Below, piece after piece: positions 25,708-44,728 of a DNA stretch of 64,000 nt. The first letter of the stretch is position 1. Each line of letters begins with the position of its first letter. The notes beneath the pieces are model-generated. The model was not told the DNA's origin and searched no databases. It saw only the letters and a list, made by a program, of their open reading frames with translations. Origin of the DNA: an archaeon (GTDB lineage: Archaea > Micrarchaeota > Micrarchaeia > CAILAH01); the NCBI GenBank assembly GCA_024274875.1, contig JAJSAH010000020.1, positions 3,897 through 67,896 on the forward strand, written 5' to 3'. A program made the position numbers and the translations under genes.

Positions 25708-25847
25708 GCAACTATTATCAGTAAAACTTTTATATATGTGAAGGTATAACTTAGTCGGCAATGAAGAGACCACCCCAGAGGAGCAGTCAGATGCTATGAC
25801 TTTCGGAGTAACTTCTGAGCCACATTTTTAAGTTTTAAGGCGTATTC

Positions 25848-26555: not shown

Positions 26556-26562
26556 ATAATTA

Positions 26563-29244
26563 TTATGGTTTGCTGTCCTCATAGTAAGAGCAAGAGACAG
26601 TTGTGACCTGAGCAACGGAAATGCTGTCCATATTCACTGCATCCAACGTTGATGATATTCCGCTGTCAGCATCAAGCAAGCTTATGGATTTAGATAGCAT
26701 CGAATTAAGCGCAAGATTTCCAAACGCATCTGCCTCCACCACGCAGTCATTTCTCGAGGATATGCAGTATCCATAAATCTCTTCAGATAATGTATCGCAC
26801 TCCTGCGCAACTTGGTCGTTCATTCCTTCATAAGCGCTTGAATATGCATCGAGAAGATATTCTGTGAACATATCTATGCACGCATCTTGTGTTTGCTGTT
26901 TCAAACTTTCGCATGACGATATGATTGACGCTTCGCTTGAGCATTCATCATAATTCTGCGCGCATATTAAGTTTGCGCATAATGAAATTACTTCGTTGGA
27001 GAACCAATCGCACCTGGATGCATACACTCCTTCCGGATGCATATCACCTTCCCAAAGACCTCTAAAAACATCTTTGCACGCATATTTATCCGCATCGTCC
27101 AGCAATTTGCTGCACAGCGAATCCGCAGTTGATGCGCATGAATAATAGTTGCCATAATAATTGCCCTCGCAGGCGCTATGCATGCATTCCATAGATAAGT
27201 TTAACTGCGCATGCCTGATTCCCTCATATAAAAATGATGTAATAACTGGATTCACCTTTGTCGAGCAATCTGGCTCCCTGCCAAGCAGAAAAATCTTTCG
27301 GATAGGGTTAGTTGCGCCATACGGCGCAGCAATCATGTATCTCCATTCCAAATATGAACATCCCGAATAATACTTCTCCTGGCCTTTTATGTAAGGAGAT
27401 CCTCTCATTACTAATACGCCTGTGCTTGCGACAGCAGGTTTTAATTCATCTGGCACTGCAATATCAGTAAGGTAATCTGCAAGTTCTTTGAATGCAATAT
27501 TAATCCTTTGCGAATATCCAAACCCTAGAAGATATATGTTAAATGTATCGCTCACATTTCCATACAACTGCGTTCCAAGCAAGTATTTTTGCTCTGCAGT
27601 CAGCAGTTTCGAATTAAAGCATAGCGATTCAGTAGTTATATCAACAACCTTGCAGGTTCCATCTTCGCACACATCCCTCATACACTGCCTATCAAAAGCA
27701 TCAACTTTCCCGTCTCCATTAAAATCAAACCTTCGGTCATACAATGAAGTGCACTGCGCATAACTCTCTGAAGAGCCAATATTTTCACCGCAATACGCAT
27801 CGAATATCTGCAAATCTGCAGTGTTTAGCAGCTCATCGCCATTCAAATCATACATTGCGCCATCATAATTGCACTCATAATAATTATCTACGCATATTTC
27901 AGGAGATTCTGTTTCAAAAACCCATGATGGAAGATCGGGATTATCCATCCAATCGTTAAATTGGTCTTCAGTGAATGTAGTCCATTCATTTTCGCCCTGC
28001 TCATCAGTTGATGTGCAGGCGATTGAGCCCGTGCTTAAAGGCAATACTCCAAATCCTCTGGCAATCAAGTTAGATAAATCAATGCATAAGAACTCAATGT
28101 CGCCTCTCTCAAACACTTCGCCCTCTTCACTGGCGCATGCGCCTGTTGATGCATCCCTGCATTCATACGGGCATGCGGGATCATAAACAAACCCTGGCGG
28201 GCAATCGCCGGCGCTCATGCAAGAGTATGTTTCAGAATCCGGCAAGGTCTTTGCGCACACTGAACCTGCGCACTCAACGCATGTCCCTGAAGCATCGCAC
28301 ACAGAGCACTGCTGGCCAACCAGTGATTCAGCGCATAGCATATTTTCGCATGATGCGCAATCCCCGCTGTTGACATCGCAACACCCAGAATCGCATCCTG
28401 CGCACGAATAATAACCTTCAGGGCACGCACCGATATCTGCGCATGTGTATGTTCCTAAAACGTTTGCGCACACTGAATCGCTGCACTCAACGCAGGTTCC
28501 GGAAGCATCGCACACAGAACACTGCTGGCCAATCTGTTCTGGGGAGCATTGCGCACCGCTGCACGATGCGCATTCTCCAGTTGCTGCTGCGCAGCATCCA
28601 GTATCGCAGTTATCGCATTGAACATAACCTGCGGGGCATGCGCCTTGCTGCTTGCACACATTCCTGTTGAGCAACGAATCATACGCGCAATAACTGTTAT
28701 CAGTGCAATCCGCGCAATTGCCTGATGAATCGCATATCTTGCATCTTTCTCCGGGTTCATCGCAAGGTTTATCGCTGCACCCTTCCAACAGTTCGCATCT
28801 GCCCTGAGCATTGCATGCATAATCCGAACAACAGGACTGCACATCCTGCGGATCGCACAGCAACCCTGCCTCGCAAGGCGCGCACTCTCCATCTGAACAC
28901 ACATATCCTGCGCAGCACGAGTCCTGCTCGCCGCACGATGCCGGATTTACACACGCTTGCTGAACCGCAAGACATTCCTGAGGGTTATCAACACTGCAAC
29001 ACTCGCCTTTCGGATTCATCACATATCCCTGCCCGCAAACGGAATAATCGCAGTAATCGATCTGATTGCCTAATGCATCAAGCACGCAGCACCCGCACGG
29101 ACTATTGCACTCAAATGCTTCATCAGGGCATTCCACTCCTCCATGTTGCGAGAACAACCATATTATAAGCAATCCAAGCACGACAAGCACTACTAATGCA
29201 ACGATTATTCTGTAATCTGCCTCGCCTCTATTTAACATTCCCAT
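26563..29244 (-). CDS. TM-anchored cysteine-rich surface protein with dockerin-like repeat pair (893 aa)
   Basis: N-term TM IVALVVLVVLGLLIIWLF; about 100 Cys in CxxC/CC modules in first 370 aa incl. a duplicated ~71-aa module; DLNGDELLNTADL...DFNGDGKVDAFD; last gene of operon. Confidence 0.7.
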   Translation of the reverse strand: MGMLNRGEADYRIIVALVVLVVLGLLIIWLFSQHGGVECPDEAFECNSPCGCCVLDALGNQIDYCDYSVCGQGYVMNPKGECCSVDNPQECLAVQQACVNPASCGEQDSCCAGYVCSDGECAPCEAGLLCDPQDVQSCCSDYACNAQGRCELLEGCSDKPCDEPGERCKICDSSGNCADCTDNSYCAYDSLLNRNVCKQQGACPAGYVQCDNCDTGCCAAATGECASCSGAQCSPEQIGQQCSVCDASGTCVECSDSVCANVLGTYTCADIGACPEGYYSCAGCDSGCCDVNSGDCASCENMLCAESLVGQQCSVCDASGTCVECAGSVCAKTLPDSETYSCMSAGDCPPGFVYDPACPYECRDASTGACASEEGEVFERGDIEFLCIDLSNLIARGFGVLPLSTGSIACTSTDEQGENEWTTFTEDQFNDWMDNPDLPSWVFETESPEICVDNYYECNYDGAMYDLNGDELLNTADLQIFDAYCGENIGSSESYAQCTSLYDRRFDFNGDGKVDAFDRQCMRDVCEDGTCKVVDITTESLCFNSKLLTAEQKYLLGTQLYGNVSDTFNIYLLGFGYSQRINIAFKELADYLTDIAVPDELKPAVASTGVLVMRGSPYIKGQEKYYSGCSYLEWRYMIAAPYGATNPIRKIFLLGREPDCSTKVNPVITSFLYEGIRHAQLNLSMECMHSACEGNYYGNYYSCASTADSLCSKLLDDADKYACKDVFRGLWEGDMHPEGVYASRCDWFSNEVISLCANLICAQNYDECSSEASIISSCESLKQQTQDACIDMFTEYLLDAYSSAYEGMNDQVAQECDTLSEEIYGYCISSRNDCVVEADAFGNLALNSMLSKSISLLDADSGISSTLDAVNMDSISVAQVTTVSCSYYEDSKP

Positions 29245-29251
29245 TTAACAT

Positions 29252-30862
29252 TCACCTCTGAACCACAACTGGGTCTGCAAAACATTGTTGCCCTTCCGGG
29301 CATGTTGCCGCTATGTTATCGCAATAATCTTCAGGAAGCACTTTCATAGAGTATGTAGGGTATTCATACGGAGACACTTGAGATGAGCTGTAATATGAAT
29401 TGCCACCGCAATCAAACGCATAATTAAACACTCCATCGCCCTGCTCATATGAAACTGTGCAACACGAACCCTGTTGCGCATCCTGATACCCTGATGCGCA
29501 TACATCAGAGGTTGTTGAAACAACACCGTCAGGGATGGCATTGCGCGGCAGTATGTACATGCAACATGCGTCAGGGTTATCGCTGCATTCGAATGCTCCA
29601 CTTGGACATGCCGCCTCAACAGATGGAGCGCATATGATCATGCCTCCTATTTGCTCGCACTCAGGCAATATAACTGCGCAACCGCGCCCTTCGCATAAGA
29701 ATGTTCCTTCTGGGCAAGCCACTATATTTTGCGCGCCCTGCTCGCAACAGCTGCAACCCTCTACATTTTCACATGGGTGACCGCTTGCACAGACCGAACA
29801 TTCGCCGGTCAAAGCATCGCAGCATCCTGAAGCGCAATCCTCCGCACTGCAAGCAACCTGTCCTTCACCGCAATTCCCAGAACTTTGACAAGTGAACATA
29901 GACGCTGCATCATTCCACGCGCACACAGTATCATCTGCGCAATCAATGCAATCATTTCCTGAGCAAACTATGCATGCTTCGCCAGGGTTGGAACATGGAA
30001 AACCTTCGCATGATTCCGCATACGCGCACGAACCCTGCGAACATACGCCGTCATCGCAGCAATCCTCGCTGAATGAACACGACCTGTCGCAAGATTCGCA
30101 GGCATTTGCATTCATATTGCATTCAAACCCGTTGCAGCATGGCTTGTCTTCATCGCAATACGCGCCCTGCTCGCAACCGCTGCACGATCCGTCTATGCAT
30201 GCATCGCCATCGCAACAATCCACATCAGATGAGCAGGAACGATAACAGCTTTCGCAGGCTCCAGCAACGCAGTTCCATCCGTTGCAACACTCATCATCTT
30301 CCGCGCAGGTTCTCTCGCATGAGATGCAAAACTCATTGCTGCACTCATAACCGCCGCAACAATCCGAATCAGATGCGCACGCAACATTATTGCAAGATTC
30401 GCATGTTCCCTCAGCCGTGCACATGAAACCTGAGCAACATGAGTTTGGGTCCTGCGGATCGCATACAAGCCCTGCTTCGCATGGAGCGCATCTTCCATTA
30501 CTGCATGAATAACCTTCGCAGCAATCCAAACTGCTTTCGCATGAGAGAGGATTAACGCATACTTTTTGATTAGTTATGCAATTCGCTGGGTTCTGAGCAT
30601 TGCAACACTGCCCTGTGCTTGGATTAAGTGAAAAACCTTCTGGGCACGACCCTGTCTCGCAGTACTCTACCAAATTGCCAAACCCATCTTCCACGCAGCA
30701 TCCGCATGCGCTTAGTGATGCATCGCACTGCACAGCTCCTTCTGGACAATTCCCGCCCAAATTCTGAAACAAAAGCATGAACAACAGCAAAAGCATGAAC
30801 CCAATAAGTAATATTGCAAGAAGTTCCATGCCTGTGTCATTATTTCTCCAAAACGGCATCAT
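29252..30862 (-). CDS. TM-anchored cysteine-rich protein, paralog of the N-terminal half of the 893-aa protein (536 aa)
   Basis: N-term TM LLAILLIGFMLLLLFMLLF; shares GRCAPCEAGLVCDPQD block (vs GECAPCEAGLLCDPQD); >90 Cys. Confidence 0.7.
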   Translation of the reverse strand: MMPFWRNNDTGMELLAILLIGFMLLLLFMLLFQNLGGNCPEGAVQCDASLSACGCCVEDGFGNLVEYCETGSCPEGFSLNPSTGQCCNAQNPANCITNQKVCVNPLSCESSLDCCEGYSCSNGRCAPCEAGLVCDPQDPNSCCSGFMCTAEGTCESCNNVACASDSDCCGGYECSNEFCISCERTCAEDDECCNGWNCVAGACESCYRSCSSDVDCCDGDACIDGSCSGCEQGAYCDEDKPCCNGFECNMNANACESCDRSCSFSEDCCDDGVCSQGSCAYAESCEGFPCSNPGEACIVCSGNDCIDCADDTVCAWNDAASMFTCQSSGNCGEGQVACSAEDCASGCCDALTGECSVCASGHPCENVEGCSCCEQGAQNIVACPEGTFLCEGRGCAVILPECEQIGGMIICAPSVEAACPSGAFECSDNPDACCMYILPRNAIPDGVVSTTSDVCASGYQDAQQGSCCTVSYEQGDGVFNYAFDCGGNSYYSSSQVSPYEYPTYSMKVLPEDYCDNIAATCPEGQQCFADPVVVQR

Positions 30863-30872: not shown

Positions 30873-33800
30873 CTACTCGCATTTATATTTCTTATACAAC
30901 TCCATCAAACGCGATTGGTCGCACATGTTGCCCTGCTGACCTTTAGGAATATCACTTTCAGAGAATATCATCAACGCCTGGCCTTCTCCCATATAATAGT
31001 AATTGCCGCATAAGTCAAACCAATGGCGCGCATACGGATCCTTCCTAACTGCGTTCTCAAGTATAACATCTGGATTGTTAACATCTTCAAATGAATTTAA
31101 CAGGTCTGCAACATCACTGCCTTCTCCGAAACTTGGCAGAGATATTCCTGATGAAGACAGCAGGTCTGAGTAAGATGATATTGTGTTTTCAAACTGCCCA
31201 TAACTTGATGCAAGATCCCCCTCCGTTTCGAAAGATGTGCTTGCAGACGATCCAAACATCGCTCCAGCATACTGCGAAAATGTGGGCATTCCGGGATACA
31301 GTTGATCCGTATGCACTCCATACGTGAATGGATCTTCCCCGCTTGTTGATGAATCATAATACAATCCGTAATCTTCGCCAGCTATCCCTGTTGACAATGG
31401 TTTGCACGAAGTATCAACCAAACAATACTGCCCCATGCCTATTATGCCTGAGCCGATCATTATCACAAAATCCTGGCCGTATAGGTCTTTCAGCTGCTTA
31501 ATCATTTCAGTATTAGTCCAACACGATTCATCCTCGTTTGCATTTCTATTTATGCCAAACCCTATTATTATTGATGGCATTCCATGATTAACAAGAGCAT
31601 ACCGCGATACATTATACAATCCTTCCAAATATGAAGAAATGGTGCACTCGCCTCTGCGCCCTGCGCCAGGGTCATCAATCACGACAATATATCCAACCAT
31701 ATCTGCCCTTTGCAGACCTTCACCCATTTTTTCTTTCAGCTTTTCATCAATCGCATCAATAGCATTCTTCATATTCTCTATATCAGCATCGCTCAACCTA
31801 AGTTCATTTGATGACATATGTATGTAAAACGGAATTGTCGAAATGCACCTCTGCTTGTAAACAGTGTTCTCATAAGGGCACATATACTTATATTGCAAAC
31901 CGTAACTTTCGCAGAAATCCTTATCTAAATCAACGCAGATGCCAGTATCCTCATCGCAGCAGCATCCATCAATTGAAAAATCGCGGTAGTCATAAGTATG
32001 CTCGATGTTTTCAGTTTCGGATTGTTCAGTTGCGCCGCCGCAAACTTCATCATCAACAGATTTAACGCTTCTGCACACACCCTCAATCTCTGCAATCTGG
32101 TCAGCAAGCCCTGAATAGCCTTCATCGCCTACGCTCGCAAGCTGGCTTACATCAATAAGCTCAGTTGTGATAAAGGAAGGTGTTGCAGGAGCGCGCGGGT
32201 TTAGCAGCTGCGTCCTGTAAACTGGATTATCCGCGCCCATTTTAGGCTCTGCGATTGATTCAGCAATCTCAGCCAGTATTGATAATTGGCTCGGGCTGCC
32301 AATCTCATCAACTGTGGCATATAGTTGCCTCTGCGTCAACGAATCTATAATTGAATGGGTGCTAACACGCTGCGCATCTCTGCATACGCGATCTCCAGGG
32401 CTCAAAGATTGCTCATCTTCAAAACCAGTTAAATAGTCTTTGAATATCACCGTTCGATCTTCATCATCTCTGTTAGTTATGCATAAGCGCGAATCTTCGC
32501 TGTTAGGAATGCTTACTTTTCGCGGCTGGAATGAGCTTATGTCTAACTCAATCTGAACCTCAGGTTTATACACATTAACTGTAAAGCTTTTTCCAGAGTA
32601 AGGGTTGTAAAATAGATACCTGATTTTTTTGCCATCGTTCGGTATCTGCAGCTCATTCGCAGTATTGAATGTTTGATGCTCGCCAGGACTTAATTCAAGC
32701 CGTCTTATCTTATCGCCCATCTCCACAGATTTGGCAGACAAGTATGCATCCATATCGATCGGGCTTACTGAATACTGCACGGAATCAATTATGCAATCCT
32801 CATAATCTCCGCTGCATATTTTGGTCATCTTATTCTGTATAACTCCATATATATCATCTTCCGAACACGGATCGAGCGCGCCGTAATACCATACAACTGC
32901 ATCAGGCCCTGTGTTATTTATAACTATTTCATCGCCGAGAGCAACATCAAGCTCATCAACTGAAACTGCGGTAGACGGATCACCTGGATCGATCTGCTGC
33001 ATTACGGTTAAGTTGTATAGATACACATCTGCATACAATGCGTTCTCCATAATGTAATCCATGCTAAGCGAAGTATTTCTGTACATTCTCCCATCGTGCG
33101 CAAAAGATGGCACTTTGTACAGCAAATCGCCCAACTCAGTATCTGCAAGATTGCGAGCGAACGGCGATATATGAGAAAATATAATTTCCTTCCCATCTTG
33201 CACATCTAAAAGATTTGGGTAGTAAGGCGACTCATGCACTGAATACCATCCCTGCATATCTGGAGAGTATGAAACCGTGCCAAGCGGCGAGATAACCTCT
33301 TGAATTCCATCAAATGTGTCCTCTCCATAACAAACCGCTTTCAGCCCTGACTCGCTGTTAATTTGGAATACGTCTGAGATCGCATAACCCTGCCCAAACT
33401 CGCTCACTCCTTCCTGAACCTCGCCTGCCAAAAAGTACGTGCGCCCAGGATCAATGCTGTTCACCATGAACAGAATGCCGTTTGTAAGAGAAGATTCATC
33501 TATTCCTCCTCTTATTCTGTTTCCTGGATCTAAATCATTGTTTGGATTGCTGGATGTATCGCAGGGCGTTTCTGGGAATTCGTAATAATCATTATTTATG
33601 AACCTATACACTCCATTATACTGGCCCACTGGATTTGATAGGTCGAAAAAGCGCACTCTTCCGCTCTCATCTTCTGAATATGCAAATGAATCTATTCCGC
33701 CAATCACATTCGCCAAATACCAATTGTCATCTCTCGTGCCCTTCAACTGGGAATCTGCGCCCCAATCCTGCTTTGTAGCCCTGCACCAATACCAAAGCTC

Positions 33801-36800
33801 TGTGCCTTCCTCATCAACTGTGCTATCTTCTGCAGGATAACCGCACAGCGCCCCGTATTTGTTGTATATTATCAACGGCTTAGAAGCAGCAACTATTAAA
33901 TCTGACCACAAAGCATTCTTAACATCATTGCTTAACCTACCTGGGATAGGCTTTGCTTCAAAATCCCGCTTATCACCGCAAGTCCTGCCGCCATAATTTT
34001 GGTTATAATCTCCTACAAAATCGCCCGTAAGCAAAAACGGCTGGGTCGTAATCAGCCTGCCGCACGGCCTCTGTATAGAATAATCATCAACAAATTTGAG
34101 GGCCGCATCATTGATTATTTCGCCATTCGCCAATATGAGCGTTTCTGGAACAATTTCAACAAAGCGTGAATCTGCGATATCGATTTTTCCATAATCCTGC
34201 CTATGCGACAGATCATACGGGTTTGGCACACTGCCAGGCATAATCGAACCAAATCCATACTGCAATCTGCCCACAACCTGCGGAAGCAGCACATAATCAT
34301 TTCTCTTGCTGCGCAAATACTCATATTTGCCAACGCCCCCAGCAAACGCGTCTCCTCCAAGCTCAGGCACTCCAATAATATGAGGAAATGAGTATGCAAA
34401 TTCTTCAGGATACACTGTGTTGTTGAACGGAACTATGAACCCAATCTTTTCTCCGATAGTATTTACATAACCGCACCCTGATTTCACCCAACCTGGCCTT
34501 TCCTCGCCGGGATTCTCGTTGTGGTACCACTTATCATACCACATGCTTGGGAATACATTAACACCCTTAACAACAAACAACGATCCTTTCCAATTCTTCA
34601 GCATGCTTTCACTGAATGCGCCTCCCGAATCGCTGTTGCTTAATATCCACGAACGGCCTGGCGCATACCTCCTGAGCAGTACTGAATAAGAATCTGAATA
34701 AACATCTCCTCCCAAGTCAACATATGTAAATCTCATTATCTTGTCGGATGTCTCTAACGCAATAGGAGTGAATATTCTGTACTCCCTTACTGCAAAGGTA
34801 TCCTTCATCCCTGTGATATACCCAGGAGTTAACTCAATTGTTCGCTGTTCAAGCTTAGATGTATATGTGTTTGGGATTATCCTATGCGTGCTTTTCAGCA
34901 CAAGAGACCCTACTCCATTTTCATCTGTATCTTGACTCCTGCCCAAAGATAATTTAATATCATCATATCCCATGTTCGGCAGCAGGGTTATATCAGTAAC
35001 TTTGGCTGCGCCGCCAACATACGGATCATGATTTGATAACGCATCTATATCGCTTGCCGATAAAGAATATGCAGTCATTTTCTGCGGGCTCCAAAACTGC
35101 TGAAGATCTGCTGTTGCGGGAGAGCCGTCATCAACTAACATGCAGTAAGAGTTTGCGCTGACATCGCTCGGCCTAAGCATTACTGCTCTGGGATCCTCTG
35201 CAAGATTGTGAAGCCTAACGAGATAATTGTCCGTTCCATGACTGTCCATTCTGTACGCATCATAAGAAACTTTCAATTCGTGAGTAACCGCGGCTTTCTT
35301 TAAATTGAACTGCTTTGACACTGTTCCGCTGCTCACGCTGAAAGTTATATCTTCATCAGGCATTTCAAAACTCCATCCATTCAACGAAGGCGAATATGCG
35401 CCAGCTTCAGGAGGAGCAGATACATCATCTCTTGAAATTCCATCTGCAAGCGTCACATTGACCTTGCTGCCTTCTGCGATTGAATAATTCTCAGGAATCG
35501 AAGGGTCAACCATATTAACATCAGTATCGCCAATTCTGGAATACACAAATACAGGCAATGCGTTATCATACGCGAGCATAGAACGCGCCTGCATAATCTC
35601 TGTCTTGCTCGGAACGCCGGACAACATTTGAACGCCAAACCCTAATGTGCTGCTTGAACCTACCCTTCCCAACGCAGATGCAGAACCTCCTTCAACATCG
35701 CCGCGTATCACTAACATATTTTTGGGAATATTGAACTGCTGCGCATCTTCATCATAATAACTTAGAGCAATGCCTCCTATCCTGCGCACAACAAAAACAT
35801 TAGCGCCAGGACGCAAAACTATTGAATCTCCACTGATCATGCGCCGCGCATTAATGCCAACCTCGAGATTTACAAAACCTGATTTCATATCATCCTCCTT
35901 GTACTGCACATTAAGCGCGCGCATCTTGTAATCTCCAAGCTGATATTCATACACTACCTGCTCGTTCGCAGGCGCTGTGATTGAGCGTTCTCCGTTTGAT
36001 GAATAAACTTTAATAGATATATCATAATCCGCATTGTTGCGTATCACGACATCCGGCACAGACAAATCTAACCTTGCCATGCTGAACCCTGTCCCATTTG
36101 AGATAGATAAATCCTCATACACTTTGTAATTAATATCATCAAGATTAACTACTTTTACATCAGGGAATTGCGAGAACAGATCTAAATTGAGCGGACCTTC
36201 AAACGCAGATGCGTAATCTGGAAACGCAACTTCAGCATATCCAGGCACGGAATTGCCGTTTACTATATATAATATGTTCTTGTCCCCTACCGCAACAAGA
36301 GCGTACAACCCAGTATCAGCATTCCTGAACATGTGCAATCCATCTGAATTCATATCATAGCATCTTTTCTGGCCTTTGGAAATCAATTCGCCTGACTGCG
36401 CAGCGCCGTTATCCCATTCCAAAGAAGACGAATCTGAAACTAATGTTGGCCCAATTATCCTAACATCAGAATCTACAGCATTTATGCATACCTTTCCGCC
36501 TTGAGCGACCCTTCCATCAGTAGGAACAAATGCAGTTGAATACGCATCTATGTTAAGAACATCGCCCCCAGTAGTTGAGATGTAAAACTTTGCGCCGGAC
36601 AATGTATCAACCAATTCATAGTTTGCTTCATTCTCAGACAAACTATAATCGCAGTAATCCTGCAACGGAGGCAACATAAATGAACCTGAATGCCCTTCAT
36701 CGCTCGAATACTCAACCTCTCTCTCTTCTCCAACAGGGTTTGAGATGCATATGAGGTCATCCTTTTTTGCGATAGATGAATACGGGGAATAATCATAATC

Positions 36801-39296
36801 ATTCACCCGAATGTTTGATTGGACATCCGATGGGAACACAACAACATACGCTTTGTTTCCAGCAGGATACTCTTTGTCTGAAATCCTGTAAATGCCGGGC
36901 TCTTTTATATCAAAACAGCATTCAAGACCAAAATATGATGATTTTGCCTGCACAGGCAGGTATGAATTCGGTTCATACAACGCCTTCTTTTCAAGCACAA
37001 GCGTTTTCTTTCCGCTGGGAGCTTCATTGCGCACGCACAACTTTGAGCCAAAAGGAATGGAGATTGCAACTGGAGCAAACAACGGCTCGTTGCTTCCCTG
37101 CACAGTTATAGTATCACCTTCAGTGTAAACTACATAACTGAAATCTTCGCTGCCTATGGTTGCAGTATACTCACCCGGGCCAGGCGCATACAGCAAGCGG
37201 ACTTTGTCATGCTCTACAACACGCATCACTATGCGCAATGACGAATCGCCTGCATCAAAAGAATCAGTCATTTCATCCTCTTGAGACCCGCTCCCTTCTA
37301 AATATACTGAACCATCCTCATTAACGCCAAAAGTTATTCCTTCGCCTAAATCCACTGAACTGCCCCTGCTCATCTCAGATATATCAAGATCGGCGCCTCC
37401 ATAAGATGCGCCAAAATAACTGCCTTCATTAATGGAGAAACTTGGACCCTGCAACTCTCCAGTGAACACTCCTGAAGCGTCATAATCTGCAGATGCAAAC
37501 ACTGCATCCAATTTAACAACGCCTTTGTAATAGAACTCAGGATTGCCTGCATTGTCAAGCCGCATCTCATTAAAATCAGTTATGGTTAGGTCTTCAGGAG
37601 TTATCACGCTAACTATGGCAAATGCATGCTCATTATCATCTACACCTATCTTTGTGGTTCCCAGAGTGAAATTTGTGCCCGAACCTGTTGGGAAACAGGT
37701 GCCTTTTCCTGCTTCAAGATATTTCAGAAGCGTCCTTGCCCCGCCATTTCCAATTAAATGCAATGTGTGATCCTTGCCTCCAACGTTGTCAAAGCATACC
37801 TCACCACCTTCAAACACAGTTGTGGTGCTTGGAGAGAATGGCAATAATCCTGCGCTTATTTCAATGTCCGCAGGTTTTGATGGCTTGCATAGTTTTTTAG
37901 CAAGCTCGTAATCATTAAAAGAGGGTCCCTGGCCAAGCATGAATATAGGTATTTCTTGGTTCTCGCTTGTCAGAACTTCCTTATACAATCCAGATGAGAA
38001 ATTATGCACTCCATAAACATACCCGCCCTGCGAAGAAGTATCAGATGTCTTCTTGCAGTATGTGTAATAATACTCATCATTTGAATTCGGCCGAGTGCAT
38101 TTGTATGTAGAATACACTGCAATATCGCATCTGCACTTGCAGATGAAATATCTCTGCTCGTCTTCTCCAGAGAATTCATCTTTGCCGCAAGTGTACACAT
38201 TCTTATAATACGGACCCAATGCATCCATCACCTCAATGCGCACATACCTGCCTTTTCCTATCCCTGCCCTGTCTATTTCAACGCATGGGTTTAAGCCATT
38301 GCATTTATTGAACTCTAAATCGGAATATGAGAACCCGCGCGCAGTAACGCCTGCATCAGATTTGCTGAAATCCTCTATGTCATCATTCGCATGCTCGCGC
38401 GAACACCTGTTGCACTCTTCACCTTTATCAGGGTTTTCCTTCGCTTCGCTGCATATATCTTCGCATCCTTTCACATATGTATCTGAACTTTCTTCAGATG
38501 AAGAATCAAGATACTCCTGAGCCAATTCTTCAAGCAACCTGTAATCATCTCTCAAGTTATCTATTCTCTTTGAATCAGGAGGATAAGCTGATGTGTCAAG
38601 AATAGGGTTGTATTCGAACCCTTTGGCATTGTATGGATACTGAATCGGCATGTTGGCTTGGCAGCCCATAGGGATTTTATAGGATAGTATGCCCCCCTCA
38701 TCACAGGTATAGCAACCTTCCTGCAAACTCGTGCAATTCAACGCATATTCAGAATTCCTAGCTGAGTCAGATACTGCGTTGCATCCCATATAATATGTTT
38801 CATCGCTTTGCTCATCCAACTTGAACTTCCCTATTGATCCCAAACCATCATAAAAAGATCCAGGATGGAGCGATTCGGAAGGGTATGCAATTCCAAACCC
38901 ATACCCGCGATCTCTCTTACCGCAGACCATTCCAGTGATGTAATACCCTACTTTTTTCTCAGTATCGAATGAACAATCATATTTAAGGCACAGCGTATCT
39001 GGAATGCTTAATACCTCGCATCTGTCACCTCTGTCTTCATAATACACAGTCCCCCGCGGGTCATCATTTGCCCCTTTATACGCAGGAGAACACTCCCACT
39101 TAACGTTCTTTTTCTCAACTTCTTTAACAACTGCCATGCAGCTTGCTTGTTTGCATTCGATGGGGGATTCAGGCACAGTCGGTTCGGCAGATTCCACAGT
39201 AATTTTCGTTGGGAGCTCTTGCCGAACATCATATTTAAGGCACCCTGCAAAGAACAATGCAACCAACAATAACAGCGCAGCGGTTAGTTTATACAC
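30873..39296 (-). CDS. Giant surface protein, 2807 aa, lipoprotein-type signal peptide
   Basis: MYKLTAALLLLVALFFAGC (lipobox-like), uninterrupted 8.4-kb ORF, many N-x-S/T sequons, Cys pairs, acidic Ser/Asp-rich tail; no TM beyond signal. Confidence 0.8.
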   Translation of the reverse strand: MYKLTAALLLLVALFFAGCLKYDVRQELPTKITVESAEPTVPESPIECKQASCMAVVKEVEKKNVKWECSPAYKGANDDPRGTVYYEDRGDRCEVLSIPDTLCLKYDCSFDTEKKVGYYITGMVCGKRDRGYGFGIAYPSESLHPGSFYDGLGSIGKFKLDEQSDETYYMGCNAVSDSARNSEYALNCTSLQEGCYTCDEGGILSYKIPMGCQANMPIQYPYNAKGFEYNPILDTSAYPPDSKRIDNLRDDYRLLEELAQEYLDSSSEESSDTYVKGCEDICSEAKENPDKGEECNRCSREHANDDIEDFSKSDAGVTARGFSYSDLEFNKCNGLNPCVEIDRAGIGKGRYVRIEVMDALGPYYKNVYTCGKDEFSGEDEQRYFICKCRCDIAVYSTYKCTRPNSNDEYYYTYCKKTSDTSSQGGYVYGVHNFSSGLYKEVLTSENQEIPIFMLGQGPSFNDYELAKKLCKPSKPADIEISAGLLPFSPSTTTVFEGGEVCFDNVGGKDHTLHLIGNGGARTLLKYLEAGKGTCFPTGSGTNFTLGTTKIGVDDNEHAFAIVSVITPEDLTITDFNEMRLDNAGNPEFYYKGVVKLDAVFASADYDASGVFTGELQGPSFSINEGSYFGASYGGADLDISEMSRGSSVDLGEGITFGVNEDGSVYLEGSGSQEDEMTDSFDAGDSSLRIVMRVVEHDKVRLLYAPGPGEYTATIGSEDFSYVVYTEGDTITVQGSNEPLFAPVAISIPFGSKLCVRNEAPSGKKTLVLEKKALYEPNSYLPVQAKSSYFGLECCFDIKEPGIYRISDKEYPAGNKAYVVVFPSDVQSNIRVNDYDYSPYSSIAKKDDLICISNPVGEEREVEYSSDEGHSGSFMLPPLQDYCDYSLSENEANYELVDTLSGAKFYISTTGGDVLNIDAYSTAFVPTDGRVAQGGKVCINAVDSDVRIIGPTLVSDSSSLEWDNGAAQSGELISKGQKRCYDMNSDGLHMFRNADTGLYALVAVGDKNILYIVNGNSVPGYAEVAFPDYASAFEGPLNLDLFSQFPDVKVVNLDDINYKVYEDLSISNGTGFSMARLDLSVPDVVIRNNADYDISIKVYSSNGERSITAPANEQVVYEYQLGDYKMRALNVQYKEDDMKSGFVNLEVGINARRMISGDSIVLRPGANVFVVRRIGGIALSYYDEDAQQFNIPKNMLVIRGDVEGGSASALGRVGSSSTLGFGVQMLSGVPSKTEIMQARSMLAYDNALPVFVYSRIGDTDVNMVDPSIPENYSIAEGSKVNVTLADGISRDDVSAPPEAGAYSPSLNGWSFEMPDEDITFSVSSGTVSKQFNLKKAAVTHELKVSYDAYRMDSHGTDNYLVRLHNLAEDPRAVMLRPSDVSANSYCMLVDDGSPATADLQQFWSPQKMTAYSLSASDIDALSNHDPYVGGAAKVTDITLLPNMGYDDIKLSLGRSQDTDENGVGSLVLKSTHRIIPNTYTSKLEQRTIELTPGYITGMKDTFAVREYRIFTPIALETSDKIMRFTYVDLGGDVYSDSYSVLLRRYAPGRSWILSNSDSGGAFSESMLKNWKGSLFVVKGVNVFPSMWYDKWYHNENPGEERPGWVKSGCGYVNTIGEKIGFIVPFNNTVYPEEFAYSFPHIIGVPELGGDAFAGGVGKYEYLRSKRNDYVLLPQVVGRLQYGFGSIMPGSVPNPYDLSHRQDYGKIDIADSRFVEIVPETLILANGEIINDAALKFVDDYSIQRPCGRLITTQPFLLTGDFVGDYNQNYGGRTCGDKRDFEAKPIPGRLSNDVKNALWSDLIVAASKPLIIYNKYGALCGYPAEDSTVDEEGTELWYWCRATKQDWGADSQLKGTRDDNWYLANVIGGIDSFAYSEDESGRVRFFDLSNPVGQYNGVYRFINNDYYEFPETPCDTSSNPNNDLDPGNRIRGGIDESSLTNGILFMVNSIDPGRTYFLAGEVQEGVSEFGQGYAISDVFQINSESGLKAVCYGEDTFDGIQEVISPLGTVSYSPDMQGWYSVHESPYYPNLLDVQDGKEIIFSHISPFARNLADTELGDLLYKVPSFAHDGRMYRNTSLSMDYIMENALYADVYLYNLTVMQQIDPGDPSTAVSVDELDVALGDEIVINNTGPDAVVWYYGALDPCSEDDIYGVIQNKMTKICSGDYEDCIIDSVQYSVSPIDMDAYLSAKSVEMGDKIRRLELSPGEHQTFNTANELQIPNDGKKIRYLFYNPYSGKSFTVNVYKPEVQIELDISSFQPRKVSIPNSEDSRLCITNRDDEDRTVIFKDYLTGFEDEQSLSPGDRVCRDAQRVSTHSIIDSLTQRQLYATVDEIGSPSQLSILAEIAESIAEPKMGADNPVYRTQLLNPRAPATPSFITTELIDVSQLASVGDEGYSGLADQIAEIEGVCRSVKSVDDEVCGGATEQSETENIEHTYDYRDFSIDGCCCDEDTGICVDLDKDFCESYGLQYKYMCPYENTVYKQRCISTIPFYIHMSSNELRLSDADIENMKNAIDAIDEKLKEKMGEGLQRADMVGYIVVIDDPGAGRRGECTISSYLEGLYNVSRYALVNHGMPSIIIGFGINRNANEDESCWTNTEMIKQLKDLYGQDFVIMIGSGIIGMGQYCLVDTSCKPLSTGIAGEDYGLYYDSSTSGEDPFTYGVHTDQLYPGMPTFSQYAGAMFGSSASTSFETEGDLASSYGQFENTISSYSDLLSSSGISLPSFGEGSDVADLLNSFEDVNNPDVILENAVRKDPYARHWFDLCGNYYYMGEGQALMIFSESDIPKGQQGNMCDQSRLMELYKKYKCE

Positions 39297-40070
39297 TCAT
39301 GACCCCCCTACTTCCAAAAGTTCTACATCAAACTTTTTATTCTTATTATCGTCATACACAATGTGCCTAAGCATTATTGGGATGCTCTCATCCACCCACA
39401 GCTCTTCCTCCCCATTCGCGTATATGAACACGCTTGCGTTGAATTTTCTTCCGCCTGCATTGTATGTTTCATACCTATCGAAGCTTTCCGCATCCAAATG
39501 CTCCTTGCACACAAACCATACTGGATACCCTGAACAGCTCATAACATTATTGTTGGACTGCTGAAAACTGCCAAAACCCTGCAAATCTGTTTGGTATTGC
39601 ACGCATTTCCCATCGCTCGCATAAGTATAGTATATGGCTATCTCTGTATGCCTTCCGCCGTAATTAGAAGTAACTGTTGATTTTATTCTGTAATACTGCC
39701 CAGTGAAAGAATCAAACTGATATGTTGAATGGACCGTGATATCCTCGAAGCTTACTGCATACTTCGTGCGCAATAACATTAATTCACTGGGATTGCCGAG
39801 CGGCGTGCAGTTGGAGAACTCCGATTGCTGATCAAACCATGTTCCCGAGCTCTGCTCAACAGCAGATTCTGGTTCTCTGTCGCCAATATTCTCACCAAAA
39901 TCCGCACCTGAAGATTCCTGGTTAGAACTCTGTTCAATTTCAGCAGCATTCGCAAACGGCATAACTTCATCATTATGCGAAGGTGAGTTTAAGTATGACA
40001 ATATAAGCACAAATGCGAACATCGCGCCTATCAGCAAAACTATCATCGTGTTGTCTTTGCTCAAATCCAC
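39297..40070 (-). CDS. Membrane-anchored hypothetical protein (257 aa)
   Basis: N-term TM MIVLLIGAMFAFVLILSYL then acidic Ser-rich linker and globular domain; stop abuts giant gene start. Confidence 0.5.
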   Translation of the reverse strand: MDLSKDNTMIVLLIGAMFAFVLILSYLNSPSHNDEVMPFANAAEIEQSSNQESSGADFGENIGDREPESAVEQSSGTWFDQQSEFSNCTPLGNPSELMLLRTKYAVSFEDITVHSTYQFDSFTGQYYRIKSTVTSNYGGRHTEIAIYYTYASDGKCVQYQTDLQGFGSFQQSNNNVMSCSGYPVWFVCKEHLDAESFDRYETYNAGGRKFNASVFIYANGEEELWVDESIPIMLRHIVYDDNKNKKFDVELLEVGGS

Positions 40071-40071: not shown

Positions 40072-41136
40072 CTAAATCACCCTTACCATGCCGCGGCCAA
40101 TATCTGCAATATTGCCGCCAAGTATTTGCGCAACTGTTCTTGCGAACAGCACTGTCCCAACCATTGCTATGAACGGGAAGAAATACGAATATAAACGCAC
40201 TACGGAGAATCCTGATGCATCCATCTTTGGCAATGCACTGCCATACCCGCTTCCCGATGACTTCTGCTTAAAGAATTCCTCGACTGCTGACGGATCGTTT
40301 GGGCACAGCTTCTTGCCCTGCTGCGCAGGAGGGCTCTCCTCAACCTCTGCGATTATGGAGCAACTCGACGGAAGTTTAGGTCCGCTGAAAAATAAAATAT
40401 TCAAGAGGAACGGATACACAAAATACAGCGAGATTGATACAGCCATTATCGCTGCTCCGGCGCCGCGAGTGTAAGGGAATGAACGCAACAGAATGCCTAT
40501 GGGGAGGTAGACTGCCACCATGCTTGCCTCAATCCACTGCAGGAAGTTTATCTGGAAATATGTGGCTATAGAAAGCCAAAGTATATTCTCTGATTCAACG
40601 ATCGAATTCATCAAGGATTTCCATGTTGAAATGAATAGCGGAGATAAAGGCAACGGGATGTTCGCGCCAAGAACATACGTAGACAATCCCATGCGAGTTA
40701 AGATCTCCTCAGATTGATCATTAAGCCTTGCCTCATATTCTGATTTGAGGCACTTTGTCATAGCGATGAAATATACATAAGATACATCAAATATATTTAC
40801 TTGAAATCCTGGCTTGCCAAGAAGCCGTTGAGCTGCTTCCTCGCTAATCATATCGCGTATATCCTTGTCCTGCGTGATGAGCAACGCAGATGATGACTCA
40901 AACGCAGCAAGAAACATAATCAAAATTATAGTTGCGCCAAGCTGATACATCTCCTTTCGCACAGTCATCTCTAATCTCCGAGAACTGAATACGCGCGAGA
41001 TCATGTACAACAAAGACAGCGAAAATGCAATAATCATTACCACTGTCATTGCGATGGAAAGCCAACCTGCCGGCAGATTTCCTGCAAGATTGCTCGCAGA
41101 AGTTTCCCACAATGAACCTATCGTAAACCAAAACAT
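40072..41136 (-). CDS. Polytopic membrane protein, paralog 1 of 6 (novel family)
   Basis: LPIGILLRSFPYTRGAGAAIMAVSISLYFVYP and C-term GGNIADIGRGMVRVI. Confidence 0.6.
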   Translation of the reverse strand: MFWFTIGSLWETSASNLAGNLPAGWLSIAMTVVMIIAFSLSLLYMISRVFSSRRLEMTVRKEMYQLGATIILIMFLAAFESSSALLITQDKDIRDMISEEAAQRLLGKPGFQVNIFDVSYVYFIAMTKCLKSEYEARLNDQSEEILTRMGLSTYVLGANIPLPLSPLFISTWKSLMNSIVESENILWLSIATYFQINFLQWIEASMVAVYLPIGILLRSFPYTRGAGAAIMAVSISLYFVYPFLLNILFFSGPKLPSSCSIIAEVEESPPAQQGKKLCPNDPSAVEEFFKQKSSGSGYGSALPKMDASGFSVVRLYSYFFPFIAMVGTVLFARTVAQILGGNIADIGRGMVRVI

Positions 41137-41137
41137 G

Positions 41138-42241
41138 TTATACCGCCCTCATAATGCCGCTTATGTCAACTTCCGTGCCTAACGCACCTGAAATGCTGCG
41201 GACCGCTGCTGCCATAAGCATCACTTCCAAAACTGGCAGGAAGAATGCTATCAGCATTATTGACCCAAATGATGAATAAACGCTTGCTAAGTCGGATTCA
41301 ACATATTCCGAAGATCCGGTTATAAACCCTAATTCTGATGCAGCCATGGTTGATCCTGTTGCAATGCCCATTACCGCTCCAAGCTTCGACGCGCTTCCTA
41401 TTGCGCCTGCCAAAGATACGCCAAGCATGGCTGCAGATAACGGGACTATATAAACCATTGCGTCAACGCTGTCAAGCTCGCTGTAATCAACACCTCCCGC
41501 CATTTCAAACCCGAAAGTAACCATCAAAGGATATATGAATGACATTCCAAGCGACACTGCGATTAGCACGCCGCCAAATTTCCTAGTTAAAGAAAATGAC
41601 CTGAACACCAACCCCACAGGAAGAAGCATCATGAATACTTTGCTCTGCGCAATCTTGAATATAGTATACTGAAAGATTATGGAAAAATACGCAAGCAAAA
41701 CTGATTGAGAAACTGGGGCAATCATGCTTGCCACTATGCTATGCGTGCCGAATGGGGATAACAGTACGCTCACGCCATGCAATGAAAAACCTGTGTAAGC
41801 GCTGCCAAGTTTTGAGTAATCCATGATTGCATTCGACATATCAAGGTATACATCAAGGATTGTTCCAGCAAGCATCTGAAATTTGCTCTCCGTCTGAACA
41901 ACCATCGCGCTCACCCCTCCGTTATAACCCAATCCATCTTCATATATGGAGATGCCGCATAGCAAAGGGATGACTGCGCGCAATGCAACTGCAAGCAGCA
42001 AAGTAATCCCTATCTGCTGGAATTCATTTTTAGTGGTCGCCTCTATTTCCGGGCTGCCCATCAGGCTGCCAATCATATACCATAATGAGACAAGCAGCCC
42101 AGAAATCATTATTCCCATAAGGAATATTGATGCAAGGTCATCTGAAATAATTTGCGCGCAGGAAGATGATTGCGCGTGCGCATCGCTGGCAATTATTGCA
42201 AGCATGATGACCAATGATGCTGCTAGTGTTCTTAACTTCAT
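41138..42241 (-). CDS. Polytopic membrane protein, paralog 2 of 6 (signal peptide)
   Basis: LPVGLVFRSFSLTRKFGGVLIAVSLGMSFIYP; C-term GTEVDISGIMRAV; N-term MKLRTLAASLVIMLAIIASDAHA. Confidence 0.6.
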   Translation of the reverse strand: MKLRTLAASLVIMLAIIASDAHAQSSSCAQIISDDLASIFLMGIMISGLLVSLWYMIGSLMGSPEIEATTKNEFQQIGITLLLAVALRAVIPLLCGISIYEDGLGYNGGVSAMVVQTESKFQMLAGTILDVYLDMSNAIMDYSKLGSAYTGFSLHGVSVLLSPFGTHSIVASMIAPVSQSVLLAYFSIIFQYTIFKIAQSKVFMMLLPVGLVFRSFSLTRKFGGVLIAVSLGMSFIYPLMVTFGFEMAGGVDYSELDSVDAMVYIVPLSAAMLGVSLAGAIGSASKLGAVMGIATGSTMAASELGFITGSSEYVESDLASVYSSFGSIMLIAFFLPVLEVMLMAAAVRSISGALGTEVDISGIMRAV

Positions 42242-42242
42242 A

Positions 42243-43334
42243 TCATACCACCCTTACCAACTGCGAGAAATCAATCTCGCTACCAAGCAAATGCGCAAAC
42301 TCGCGCGCCATTCCTAATGAAACAATAATTGCAAGCATTGGCAACAGCATGCCTTCCACGCCCATCGTCAGAAAGATAACTGCTATGCCTGAACTGCTGC
42401 CATAGGACAGGTTGTCTGCCGCATTCCCAACTAAATCTGAAATGGTGGGGTTGTCAAAACCTGAACCAACGCCAAATTCAGAAGCAAGACCTTTGTATGC
42501 ATCTGTCTTGCCTGCGAACTTAGTCATTATGACGCCTCCTAGGTCAGTGAGGATATCTGATTCTCCGCACTTTGGATCTGACGGATTATAGCTCATCCCC
42601 ATCGTTTGCACGAGCAATTCTTTGTTGAACAGGTACATGCCAGGCAGCACTAAGTACAGAGCCATGAACAGCGCTATGAGAAGGTTGCCCGCATGCCTGG
42701 AGAACTTAAACGACCTAAAGAATATGCCTAGCGGGAGCAGAGCGCTTGCCCCTTTATCGACAACAAACGAAATGATCAAATGATGCAATTTAACCATGCC
42801 AAGAGGTATGAACATATAACTCTGCACATTTGCAACTGAAGTCAAAAGCGGCTGCAGAAACGGCGCAAACGATATGCCTGCATGCCAAGTTGACAAGCCA
42901 GGCGCCTTGCCTTCCTCTTTGTCCTTCCCGCTGGATTTCATATTGGCAGTATCAGTATCCGATGCAGATTTAACATCCTGCGGAGTGCCTCTCATGCTGA
43001 ATACAGATGGATTAAAATTGAATGTTATCGATGCAATCAGCGAAAGAACATTGGAATCAGCAATGAAGGATGCCTGACATGAAACCATCTTGTTGAACAA
43101 GTAAGATATATACTCCTGCGAAGAGGTCACATAATCAGTTATGTATGAAAATGATGCAAAGGACGCCAAACTTGCAAACAGAACTAAAGTGATGAACACA
43201 TTCTGCATCTCGAGCTTCGACCAAGCTCGCAGAACTTCTGAGTTAAGGAGGTATGACAGCATGTATATGAGCACAGTAAGCAGGTATGATGAAATTACAC
43301 CTATTATTGCAAGCTCGTTCCAAGTAACCATCAT
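42243..43334 (-). CDS. Polytopic membrane protein, paralog 3 of 6
   Basis: LPLGIFFRSFKFSRHAGNLLIALFMALYLVLP; C-term GSEIDFSQLVRVV. Confidence 0.6.
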   Translation of the reverse strand: MMVTWNELAIIGVISSYLLTVLIYMLSYLLNSEVLRAWSKLEMQNVFITLVLFASLASFASFSYITDYVTSSQEYISYLFNKMVSCQASFIADSNVLSLIASITFNFNPSVFSMRGTPQDVKSASDTDTANMKSSGKDKEEGKAPGLSTWHAGISFAPFLQPLLTSVANVQSYMFIPLGMVKLHHLIISFVVDKGASALLPLGIFFRSFKFSRHAGNLLIALFMALYLVLPGMYLFNKELLVQTMGMSYNPSDPKCGESDILTDLGGVIMTKFAGKTDAYKGLASEFGVGSGFDNPTISDLVGNAADNLSYGSSSGIAVIFLTMGVEGMLLPMLAIIVSLGMAREFAHLLGSEIDFSQLVRVV

Positions 43335-44728
43335 AACAACCTCCCTAACGCAGGTATCTCAACATCGCCGCCCAACAATGGAGACAGCCCGCGTATGAAT
43401 GAGAATAATACATAGAAGTTTATCAACGGCAACGCCAGCGCAACTATCAGGTATCGAGAAATAAGGTCAAACGCGCCTACCTTTCCTGTTTCATAGTCTG
43501 TGTACAAATCATTCGCATCCTTGATTGTTGCACTGTTAAGGCTGCTTATAGCTACCAACACTGATATAAGCACAAGCACATCGATAGCCGTTTTAAGGAT
43601 GCCTCCAGGGGTCGTCACAAGCTTTACTATTTCAGCTACGCGCAATGCAGTAAAACCCATTATAACTAATAGCATTGCAAGAGCCGAACCTAGCGTGCTA
43701 TCCCCAAATGCATCGGGCAACTCTGATATTGTTTCAAAGAAATCCTCCTCGCCAGTTTCAGGAATACCCATGCCAGACATGCTAGCGCTCTCAGATATGC
43801 CTGCCTCCTGCATAGGTTTTATATCAATCGTGTACCACCCCAATGCATAAAGCATCGGAAGAACATACATAAACCCAATCCCCATCGCAAGGAATAAGCC
43901 TCCGGCTTTTCTGAATACCCATATTGACCTAAATAAGATGCCAAGAACTATCAACCCGCTCGCAAGGCCGAACTCAAAAAACTTGAGTATGCTTTCTTGG
44001 AATTTGATGATCATCATTATCTTTTCCGTGAATGCAATGAGGTTGTCAAGAGTGTTCAGAAGCACTGAGTGCAGCGGGAAAGATGATGCAAAACTTATCC
44101 CAAAAATCTGGTCAAGAATGCTCATGTCTGTGCTGAACCCAAACGAATCTATTGAGTAATATATTGAGTAATCATGCATGAAATTTTTCAAAAGAACTGC
44201 AAGCTTTTCATAAGTTATCCCTAAGTACGAACGTGCCATGAGGAATTTTGGGTCGCAGTTTTCAGCGCCTGGACCTGTGCATACTGCCTTGCCTCCGACC
44301 ACCGAAACTTTTAGCCCATTTCCTGATTCTCTCCACCTGTTTGAGGCGGGATCATAAACCAAATCAGTCCTTAATTGGTGGCATTCAGGACCTTCGCAGC
44401 TCACCTGCGGATTAACGATGCCTACAAAAAACTCATCAGTAATGCCATTCACAAGCGCAAGCGCGCCTACCAGCGATGCAACGATTATTGCAGAAAATAC
44501 TGCCTGCATAACCTCATTCCTGCACCACGCTTTGATTTCCTCATCTTCAAGCATATACGAAACCATGTACGCAAGCGAAACCAACAGCAGATGAATTATG
44601 ATTACTGCTGCAGCAAGCGAAATCCAACCTGTTGTGTTGAACAGGTCAAACCACCCAACATCATCGCTAGCAGCGTAAGCAAGAATCATCAACATCGCGA
44701 ATGACAGAAGAATTTTGCTAGACATCAC
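43331..44728 (-). CDS. Polytopic membrane protein, paralog 4 of 6 (Cys-containing extracellular loop)
   Basis: LGILFRSIWVFRKAGGLFLAMGIGFMYVLP; C-term GGDVEIPALGRLL; loop CEGPECHQ...CTGPGAENC. Confidence 0.6.
   Translation of the reverse strand: MMSSKILLSFAMLMILAYAASDDVGWFDLFNTTGWISLAAAVIIIHLLLVSLAYMVSYMLEDEEIKAWCRNEVMQAVFSAIIVASLVGALALVNGITDEFFVGIVNPQVSCEGPECHQLRTDLVYDPASNRWRESGNGLKVSVVGGKAVCTGPGAENCDPKFLMARSYLGITYEKLAVLLKNFMHDYSIYYSIDSFGFSTDMSILDQIFGISFASSFPLHSVLLNTLDNLIAFTEKIMMIIKFQESILKFFEFGLASGLIVLGILFRSIWVFRKAGGLFLAMGIGFMYVLPMLYALGWYTIDIKPMQEAGISESASMSGMGIPETGEEDFFETISELPDAFGDSTLGSALAMLLVIMGFTALRVAEIVKLVTTPGGILKTAIDVLVLISVLVAISSLNSATIKDANDLYTDYETGKVGAFDLISRYLIVALALPLINFYVLFSFIRGLSPLLGGDVEIPALGRLL

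Follow-up and report, generated by a model that had tools for sequence, protein, structure and literature searches.

The closest described counterparts of giant surface proteins in host-dependent archaea are the SPEARE proteins of the Nanohaloarchaeota (Hamm et al. 2019, PMC6642349), which are characterized by a serine protease, laminin-G/adhesion domains, a cytoplasmic type III restriction domain that represents their most conserved part, and a transmembrane (TM) segment near one end. The Micrarchaeota lack lipid synthesis, possess few transporters and need cell contact to obtain lipids and metabolites, and their contact machinery has not been identified (PMC8975820). It is an open question how these and other DPANN archaea recognize and bind their hosts, and by what means they withdraw lipids and metabolites. 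Here we analyze a 64,000-nucleotide (nt) stretch of a micrarchaeal genome (GenBank assembly GCA_024274875.1, contig JAJSAH010000020.1; hereafter, the window), which encodes a giant protein of 2807 amino acids (aa) within a conserved cluster of envelope genes. The giant and SPEARE are both very large, mostly extracellular and membrane-tethered proteins of DPANN archaea that occupy a considerable part of a very small genome and have a proposed role at the host interface. We suggest, at about even odds, that the giant forms the extracellular arm of a Micrarchaeota-specific envelope complex, in which it serves as a structural subunit mediating contact or adhesion with another cell.

An initial annotation, made from the sequence alone, described the giant gene as a single uninterrupted 8.4-kb open reading frame (ORF), and this description holds: at a GC content of 0.44, the chance of encountering no stop across 2807 codons is ~1e-71. 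The protein is conserved from the first to the last residue in other genomes (33–45% identity), so the 8.4-kb gene is real and represents one gene, neither a chance ORF nor several fused genes, the latter being the outcome that the initial annotation had named as fatal to its claim. Its GTG start is preceded by a G-rich stretch and lies right behind the TGA of the upstream gene. At this junction (39294-39299), the upstream 257-aa gene and the giant share a reading frame, with a single TGA codon between them. A read-through fusion of the two was considered and appears unlikely because the frames are not shared in homologous loci, where the genes overlap or differ in frame. One contig of 565 kb devotes 1.6% of its DNA to the giant alone.

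The N-terminus of the giant reads (M)YKLTAALLLLVALFFAGC and is lipoprotein-like, as first noted. A PS51257-type lipobox pattern (a K/R-containing n-region and a hydrophobic core, then [LVI..][AST..][GAS]-C, all within the first ~35 residues) is present in the window protein and in 14 of the 15 complete N-termini of the family, and the strict form [LVI][ASTVI][GAS]C in five; the lipobox Cys19 is invariant in all of them across three subfamilies. A Kyte-Doolittle scan of the giant found no TM-like segment besides the signal peptide at aa 1-26. Together, the signal peptide, the conserved lipobox, the lack of further TM segments and the disulfide-type Cys pairs of its β-sandwiches (see below) argue for a membrane-tethered, extracellular protein: the giant is probably exported by the Sec pathway and lipid-anchored at Cys19 to the cytoplasmic membrane, the remainder being wholly extracellular. 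The surface tethering proposed in the initial annotation is thus supported. Lipoproteins are reported to be prevalent in DPANN archaea, and the signal peptide and conserved lipobox Cys of the giant resemble those of archaeal lipobox lipoproteins of the AliA/AliB pathway (PMC12462473). However, the latter are typically solute-binding proteins of ordinary size, whereas the giant, the lipidation of which is predicted, has 2807 aa and often carries F or S at lipobox position -3 in its family. In one locus (L006 10001-10149; contig CAILAH010000033.1), the N-terminus of the giant orthologue is interrupted, its ORF begins ~50 codons late and the gene call P0039 is devoid of a signal peptide, probably as a result of an assembly error or a frameshift.

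The giant is rich in Ser, Gly, Asp and Tyr, in line with the Gly/Asp/Tyr richness first reported for it. It contains 64 Cys residues (2.28%, against 1.13% in the 31 other ORFs of the window), confirming its Cys-rich character, and these are densest at aa 20-480 (5.4%) and aa 2400-2807 (3.9%), the centre having 0.7%; the β-sandwich modules contain one Cys pair each. By contrast, the claimed richness in N-glycosylation sequons turns out to be a depletion, with 11 N-x-S/T sites against 18.5±3.9 in shuffled sequences.

Domain boundaries within the giant are given in Table 1. Its Cys-rich N-domain has R25, P29, 14 Cys and the QGG and GQG motifs invariant across the three subfamilies; searches of PDB and Pfam gave no significant match for it, and its profile retrieved plastocyanins at E>1 only, over the first of the following modules. 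Five recognizable cupredoxin-like modules of ~85 aa (aa 485-569, 737-826, 835-914, 920-1007 and 2253-2332) share the consensus '..P..i.v..G..vCi.N......(30)..C....G.Y', and a sixth β-sandwich was located at aa ~2115-2245 in an AlphaFold2 model. The sole Pfam signal in the window giant is a Cupredoxin_1 match of 17.7 bits (cut-off 27). Among its homologues, the Cupredoxin_1 / Copper-bind cut-offs are passed by P0023 (31 bits vs 27) and by P0031 and P0047 (24.1 and 23.9 bits vs 21.2), and in distant homologues these matches fall on the block equivalent to modules 2-4. The AlphaFold2 model, built for aa 2090-2807 from a 3-row alignment, has a mean predicted local distance difference test score (pLDDT) of 49, with 65-86 in β-sandwich modules 5-6 and a low-confidence alternation of β-strands and α-helices in the C-module. 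Foldseek matched modules 5-6 to tandem β-sandwich adhesins, matrix proteins and two-domain laccases. Outside the β-sandwiches, the model is poor. In a check for internal repeats, which the initial annotation had recommended, BLAST found no recent ones, sliding hhalign comparisons linked the modules to each other weakly, and a module hidden Markov model detected no additional modules in the centre. A single-sequence search of PDB with the giant gave no match.

In place of a type-1 copper motif, every module contains a pair of Cys, and the modules are, as judged from sequence, structural spacers that have lost the copper site. The central region, ~1000 residues of which could not be aligned to the distant subfamilies, has no recognized fold. 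Seven Cys are invariant in the C-terminal module, as are Gly, Trp, Tyr and a D-x-S motif, a pattern more suggestive of a disulfide-stabilized domain for binding or docking than of an enzyme; profile searches of PDB and Pfam identified no significant relative of this module. The last 57 aa, with the basic and aromatic end LYKKYKCE, are the best-conserved part of the giant (70–94% identity). An acidic Ser/Asp tail had also been described: the Ser-rich stretch devoid of Lys and Arg does exist, but as an insert within the C-module rather than at the terminus, since the conserved 57 residues come after it.

The family of the giant was found only in Micrarchaeota. Word-indexed searches, including one with a profile, recovered only two full-length relatives with ~40% identity, whereas seven further loci (32–51% identity) emerged when species-representative genomes and metagenomes were scanned, and an exhaustive HMMER search of 1.84 billion representatives with a profile of aa 1750-2807 produced 27 hits. 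All named hits among the latter belong to Micrarchaeota and include proteins of 1.7-2.3 k aa; a 2925-aa homologue with the IMG name 'plastocyanin' (P0047) was found as a cluster member of one HMMER hit. The family comprises at least three deep subfamilies with ~20 known sequences and members of 1.9-3.0 k aa. According to a local whole-family profile, distant members (1.9-2.9 k aa) are co-linear with the window giant at both ends and not in the centre, and the subfamilies have in common the lipobox region (..L[AS]GC[LF]NMTPR..), the N-domain, the first β-sandwich block, the last modules and the C-terminal module. Every named relative comes from metagenome-assembled genomes (MAGs) of 'Candidatus Micrarchaeia' or 'Micrarchaeota', with which the window shares flanking synteny (Na/H exchanger, SRP54 and GT2 genes), and the window encodes archaeal SecY, SRP54, FtsY, HerA, PCNA and AglB-like proteins. 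A protein encoded on a 75.5-kb contig at NCBI is 100% identical to the giant. The source is a Micrarchaeia archaeon of the DPANN group and not a nanohaloarchaeon. A tblastn search against phage genomes gave no match, hence no sign of viral origin.

In all loci examined (L001-L016), including those of the three deep subfamilies, the giant gene belongs to an identical core of nine genes in identical order, namely, the divergent gene for a coiled-coil protein, the six membrane-protein genes, one gene encoding ~215-257 aa and that of the giant itself, which confirms that it is part of a gene cluster as first proposed. The window contains 11 cluster genes, and the giant is the eighth of ten on the minus strand, which are separated by gaps of 0, -4, -4, 1, 1, 1, 0, 10 and 7 nt. 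We propose that it would be co-transcribed with the six membrane proteins and the 257-aa bitopic protein. The divergent gene keeps the same position in all lineages; its 1042-aa product has a Lys-rich coiled-coil cytoplasmic part of ~860 aa, an isoelectric point of 9.1 and weak SMC-like matches. Every cluster product bears a signal peptide or TM anchor of its own. When all cluster proteins were scanned against Pfam, NCBIfam and PHROGs, nothing exceeded the thresholds and one borderline dockerin was noted, and no ATPase or recognizable secretion component was detected among the 11 genes by Pfam and NCBIfam. A description of this cluster was not found in the literature searched.

The six polytopic membrane proteins are paralogues that share a TR..G motif, a conserved Pro and, at the C-terminus, the acidic tail LGG[DE]x[DE]I..L.R. 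Each paralogue of the window has its best match at the same position in distant loci. This one-to-one, collinear orthology indicates that the six-fold duplication is older than the divergence of the lineages, and the retention of six ancient copies would be the hallmark of a hetero-oligomer in which each subunit is distinct. Three of the six have cleavable-looking signal peptides. The longest ORF of the first membrane gene (45658-47136 on the minus strand; 492 aa from an ATG at 47136) reaches into the start of the divergent gene; translation more likely starts at Met33 (47040), as in the database gene call P0004 (460 aa) and the orthologues. Hydropathy and the positive-inside rule tentatively suggest a topology with the N-terminus outside and the conserved acidic tail inside, two short, K/R-rich, conserved loops on the inner side and two long variable loops on the outer side. 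An AlphaFold2 model of the membrane paralogues (13 rows) is all-α with very long helices (pLDDT 66, predicted TM-score 0.51); neither a Foldseek search with this model nor a profile search of PDB gave a significant match. The tandem VirB6 paralogues of the Rickettsiales type IV secretion system (T4SS) and CedA of the archaeal Ced system were considered for comparison. The micrarchaeal paralogues differ from both in that no sequence signal links them (0 of 13 members match the TrbL/VirB6 profile of Pfam, even at E<=10) and Foldseek was negative; a VirB6 identity is an unsupported lead. Unlike a T4SS, the cluster has no VirB4/HerA-type ATPase, pilin or other T4SS gene; a HerA gene is located ~9 kb away, outside the operon.

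These data can be combined into the following scheme. After Sec export, the lipid anchor at Cys19 would hold the giant on the cytoplasmic membrane, from which the N-domain, the β-sandwich spacers, the variable centre, two further β-sandwiches and the C-module would follow in outward order. The giant would join a hetero-oligomeric envelope complex built on the six membrane subunits, its conserved ends docking to these subunits or to a conserved target. In Micrarchaeota, the pseudoperiplasm is 20-25 nm wide. The giant may span this ~20-25 nm pseudoperiplasm and the S-layer, leaving the variable centre exposed to contact or adhere to another cell. The host is the most plausible partner, since lipid synthesis and many other biosynthetic pathways are missing in Micrarchaeota, which are also poor in transporters and rely on direct cell contact. 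On the inner side, the acidic tails of the paralogues could meet the basic coiled-coil protein. The nearest general class for the giant is that of large modular surface adhesins built on β-sandwich spacers, such as the tandem Ig/FnIII-like adhesins and matrix proteins (RbmA, the Mobiluncus adhesin and the ice-binding RTX adhesin). In contrast to these bacterial proteins, the giant has five to six highly diverged modules, holds most of its mass in unique domains with no known fold, and is anchored by a lipobox, with no RTX, LPXTG or type I secretion system features.

A more far-reaching version of this scheme, which we offer as a tentative possibility, views the cluster as a new cell-cell interaction machine composed of a hetero-hexameric ring or channel of the six ancient paralogues in the membrane of the symbiont, a membrane-anchored coiled-coil scaffold linked to it on the cytoplasmic side, and the giant reaching out across the S-layer to the membrane of the host. 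If true, the symbiont would attach to its host through this machine and acquire lipids and metabolites that it is unable to make. Such an archaeal envelope apparatus would belong to a new class, as none of the known secretion, pilus or adhesion systems is homologous to it. As a giant found only in Micrarchaeota always sits in the same unrecognizable envelope gene cluster, the latter is a concrete candidate for the cell-contact machinery of this phylum, for which no symbiont-encoded apparatus was previously identified. The cluster takes up several percent of a ~0.6-Mb genome and keeps its order across deeply divergent Micrarchaeota. The contact hypothesis is directly testable, because cultivated Micrarchaeota co-cultures with proteomics and cryo-electron tomography exist.

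Several observations weigh against the proposed role as a contact arm. In the close subfamily, a non-canonical residue (F or S) occupies lipobox position -3. Association of the cluster products into a complex is predicted from synteny alone, and the putative contact function would suit phylum-wide conservation no better than a housekeeping role in the envelope, which fits it equally well. Moreover, a recognizable fold is missing from the N-domain, the centre and the C-module alike and the mean pLDDT of the model is 49, so the role of the giant may instead be catalytic or in transport. The housekeeping alternative, in which the giant and its partners would form a membrane-to-S-layer tether, spacer or assembly platform with no specific part in host contact, is the main rival, even if we consider it unlikely. 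It agrees with the occurrence of the cluster in every sampled Micrarchaeota lineage at a fixed locus beside housekeeping genes, among them SRP54 and the Na/H exchanger, and a lipid anchor followed by about six β-sandwich spacers would suit the width of the pseudoperiplasm; in addition, the S-layer protein of Micrarchaeum is reported to hold a domain resembling copper-binding proteins, and the number of distinct subunits, six, is reminiscent of the six-fold S-layer lattice of ARM-1. Archaeal S-layer proteins are, however, low in Cys and have many glycosylation sites, and the giant, with 2.3% Cys and depleted sequons, displays the opposite traits. Neither S_layer_N (PF05123) nor TIGR01567 or similar domains were detected in it by Pfam and NCBIfam scans; an S-layer protein proper was rejected on these grounds. 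The variable centre and the lineage-specific Cys-rich accessories (see below) also suggest a diversifying interface. Even if the cluster serves housekeeping, it would still be a new type of archaeal envelope complex and would contribute several new protein domains, those of the N-domain, the C-module and the membrane family of six paralogues. Another possibility is an uptake conduit, with the six paralogues forming a channel and the giant bridging it to the host membrane to draw lipids or metabolites. The metabolic dependence of Micrarchaeota (PMC8975820) and the conserved cytoplasmic-side motifs of the six polytopic subunits would fit such a conduit, which nevertheless seems unlikely, given the missing TrbL/VirB6 signal in Pfam and the lack of an ATPase or other energizing component in the cluster.

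The initial annotation had viewed the giant as the probable cargo or effector of the cluster and compared it with adhesins or SPEARE-type proteins of nanohaloarchaea. A SPEARE-type or adhesin-like effector exported by the cluster's own secretion system could be imagined from the size of the giant, its extracellular location, its DPANN source and its position beside membrane-protein genes, but we find this very unlikely. The giant has its own Sec signal and lipobox, its partners are self-targeted, and the cluster has no secretion ATPase or other energizing component. A stoichiometric structural subunit therefore fits better than a cargo. Furthermore, all four defining features of SPEARE are missing: no peptidase family was detected in the giant (Pfam at E<=1, NCBIfam at E<=0.1), laminin-G and other recognized adhesion domains are absent, the sub-threshold Cupredoxin_1 signal being the only one in Pfam, no ResIII or helicase match was obtained with Pfam or NCBIfam, and there is no C-terminal TM segment leading to a cytoplasmic portion, the only hydrophobic segment being the signal peptide. 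The two also differ in their anchors (N-terminal lipobox vs C-proximal TM segment), in the lack of a toxin domain of the BC type in the giant, in phylum, and in the location of the giant within a conserved multi-gene envelope operon. In the absence of sequence similarity and of sequence relatives outside Micrarchaeota, homology with SPEARE was discarded, and a loose functional analogy is the most that is left of the comparison. A function as an extracellular redox or copper protein, suggested by the IMG name of P0047 and by the Cupredoxin_1 and Copper-bind matches in homologues along with the weak match in the window giant, is even less credible. The modules appear to resemble cupredoxins (plastocyanin/azurin; PF13473, PF00127) in fold and sequence pattern. 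Nevertheless, the type-1 copper ligands (His...Cys-x-His-x-Met) are absent, the motif C-x(1-4)-H-x(2-6)-M occurring nowhere in the giant; His makes up 1% of its residues and is out of register with the modules, the Cys pairs of which are typical of disulfides. The modules are structural and cover less than 20% of a 300-kDa protein, and a functional blue-copper protein was accordingly excluded from the candidates.

Table 1. Features of the giant gene, its protein domains and the surrounding cluster in the window
Feature	Coordinates	Strand	Remarks
Giant lipoprotein gene	30873..39296	-	2807 aa + stop codon; GTG start abuts TGA of upstream gene
Predicted signal peptide (K3, hydrophobic core) with lipobox FAG|C19, aa 1-19	39240..39296	-	PS51257-like pattern
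Conserved Cys-rich N-domain, aa 20-482	37851..39239	-	25 Cys; motifs C-LKYD-R-ELP, QGG, GQG
Cupredoxin-like β-sandwich module 1, aa 485-569	37590..37844	-	Cys501-Cys534 pair; weak plastocyanin matches
Spacer, aa 570-736	37089..37589	-	Cys-free, Gly/Ser/Asp-rich; identity 0.26-0.42, indels
Cupredoxin-like modules 2-4 in tandem, aa 737-1007	36276..37088	-	Cys pairs 754/793-4, 850/882, 937/979
Central region, aa 1008-2104	32985..36275	-	Cys-poor (0.7%); conserved in close subfamily only
β-sandwich modules 5-6, aa 2105-2332	32301..32984	-	Cys 2144/2161-2168, 2272/2305; Cupredoxin_1 17.7 bits, AlphaFold2
Conserved linker (NPxAPATP..ITTE) and Cys knot, aa 2333-2484	31845..32300	-	invariant CCC motif
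C-terminal Cys-stabilized α/β module, aa 2485-2807	30876..31844	-	ends ...CD.SR.M.LY..YKC; signature common to all subfamilies
Insert within C-module, aa 2651-2750	31047-31346	-	Ser/Thr-rich, K/R-free, length-variable
N-terminally TM-anchored 257-aa protein	39297..40070	-	always directly upstream of giant
Six paralogous polytopic membrane proteins	40072..47040	-	354, 367, 363, 465, 310, 460 aa
Putative shared promoter region, 58 bp	47041-47098		AT-rich, TATA-like boxes
Divergent 1042-aa protein	47099..50227	+	lipobox SAG|C30, small ectodomain, one TM (aa 152-178), coiled coil
Two paralogous TM-anchored Cys-rich proteins	26563..30862	-	3' end of operon; lineage-specific accessories
Cys-rich protein, 536 aa	29252-30862	-	87 Cys
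Cys-rich protein, 893 aa	26563-29244	-	89 Cys; dockerin type I motif 22.8 bits vs cut-off 22.9

Besides the core genes, the window cluster includes two Cys-rich proteins composed of tandem units of ~25-35 aa with the knottin-like spacing C-x(3-8)-C-x(3-9)-CC-x(2-5)-C-x(3-13)-C, and the GC content climbs locally to 0.51 over their genes. Related Cys-rich proteins are encoded behind the giant in L002 and L015, whereas none were found downstream of it in L013 and L016. In L013, an extra Cys-rich lipobox protein of 405 aa (921-2138, plus strand) heads the cluster. Near the cluster of L016, a protein of 1672 aa (23627-28645, plus strand) combines discoidin (F5/8 type C) with Big domains. A scan of the window for bacterial promoters and terminators gave counts equal to those in shuffled sequences, and scans for tRNAs and Rfam families were negative.

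Among the other genes of the window, a KaiC/RadA-like ATPase of 235 aa (25848-26555, plus strand) is convergent to the 3' end of the operon, an arrangement also present in L001 and not in L002. Three ORFs encoding 247-336 aa (60672-61682 and 61784-62767 on the minus strand, 51473-52216 on the plus strand) have no Pfam match, and an unrelated ResIII helicase gene is located elsewhere in the window. Finally, a 941-aa protein (54201-57026, minus strand) has a sub-threshold match to the AglB core domain (24 bits vs 27) and is probably a divergent oligosaccharyltransferase, which is of interest given the scarcity of sequons in the giant.

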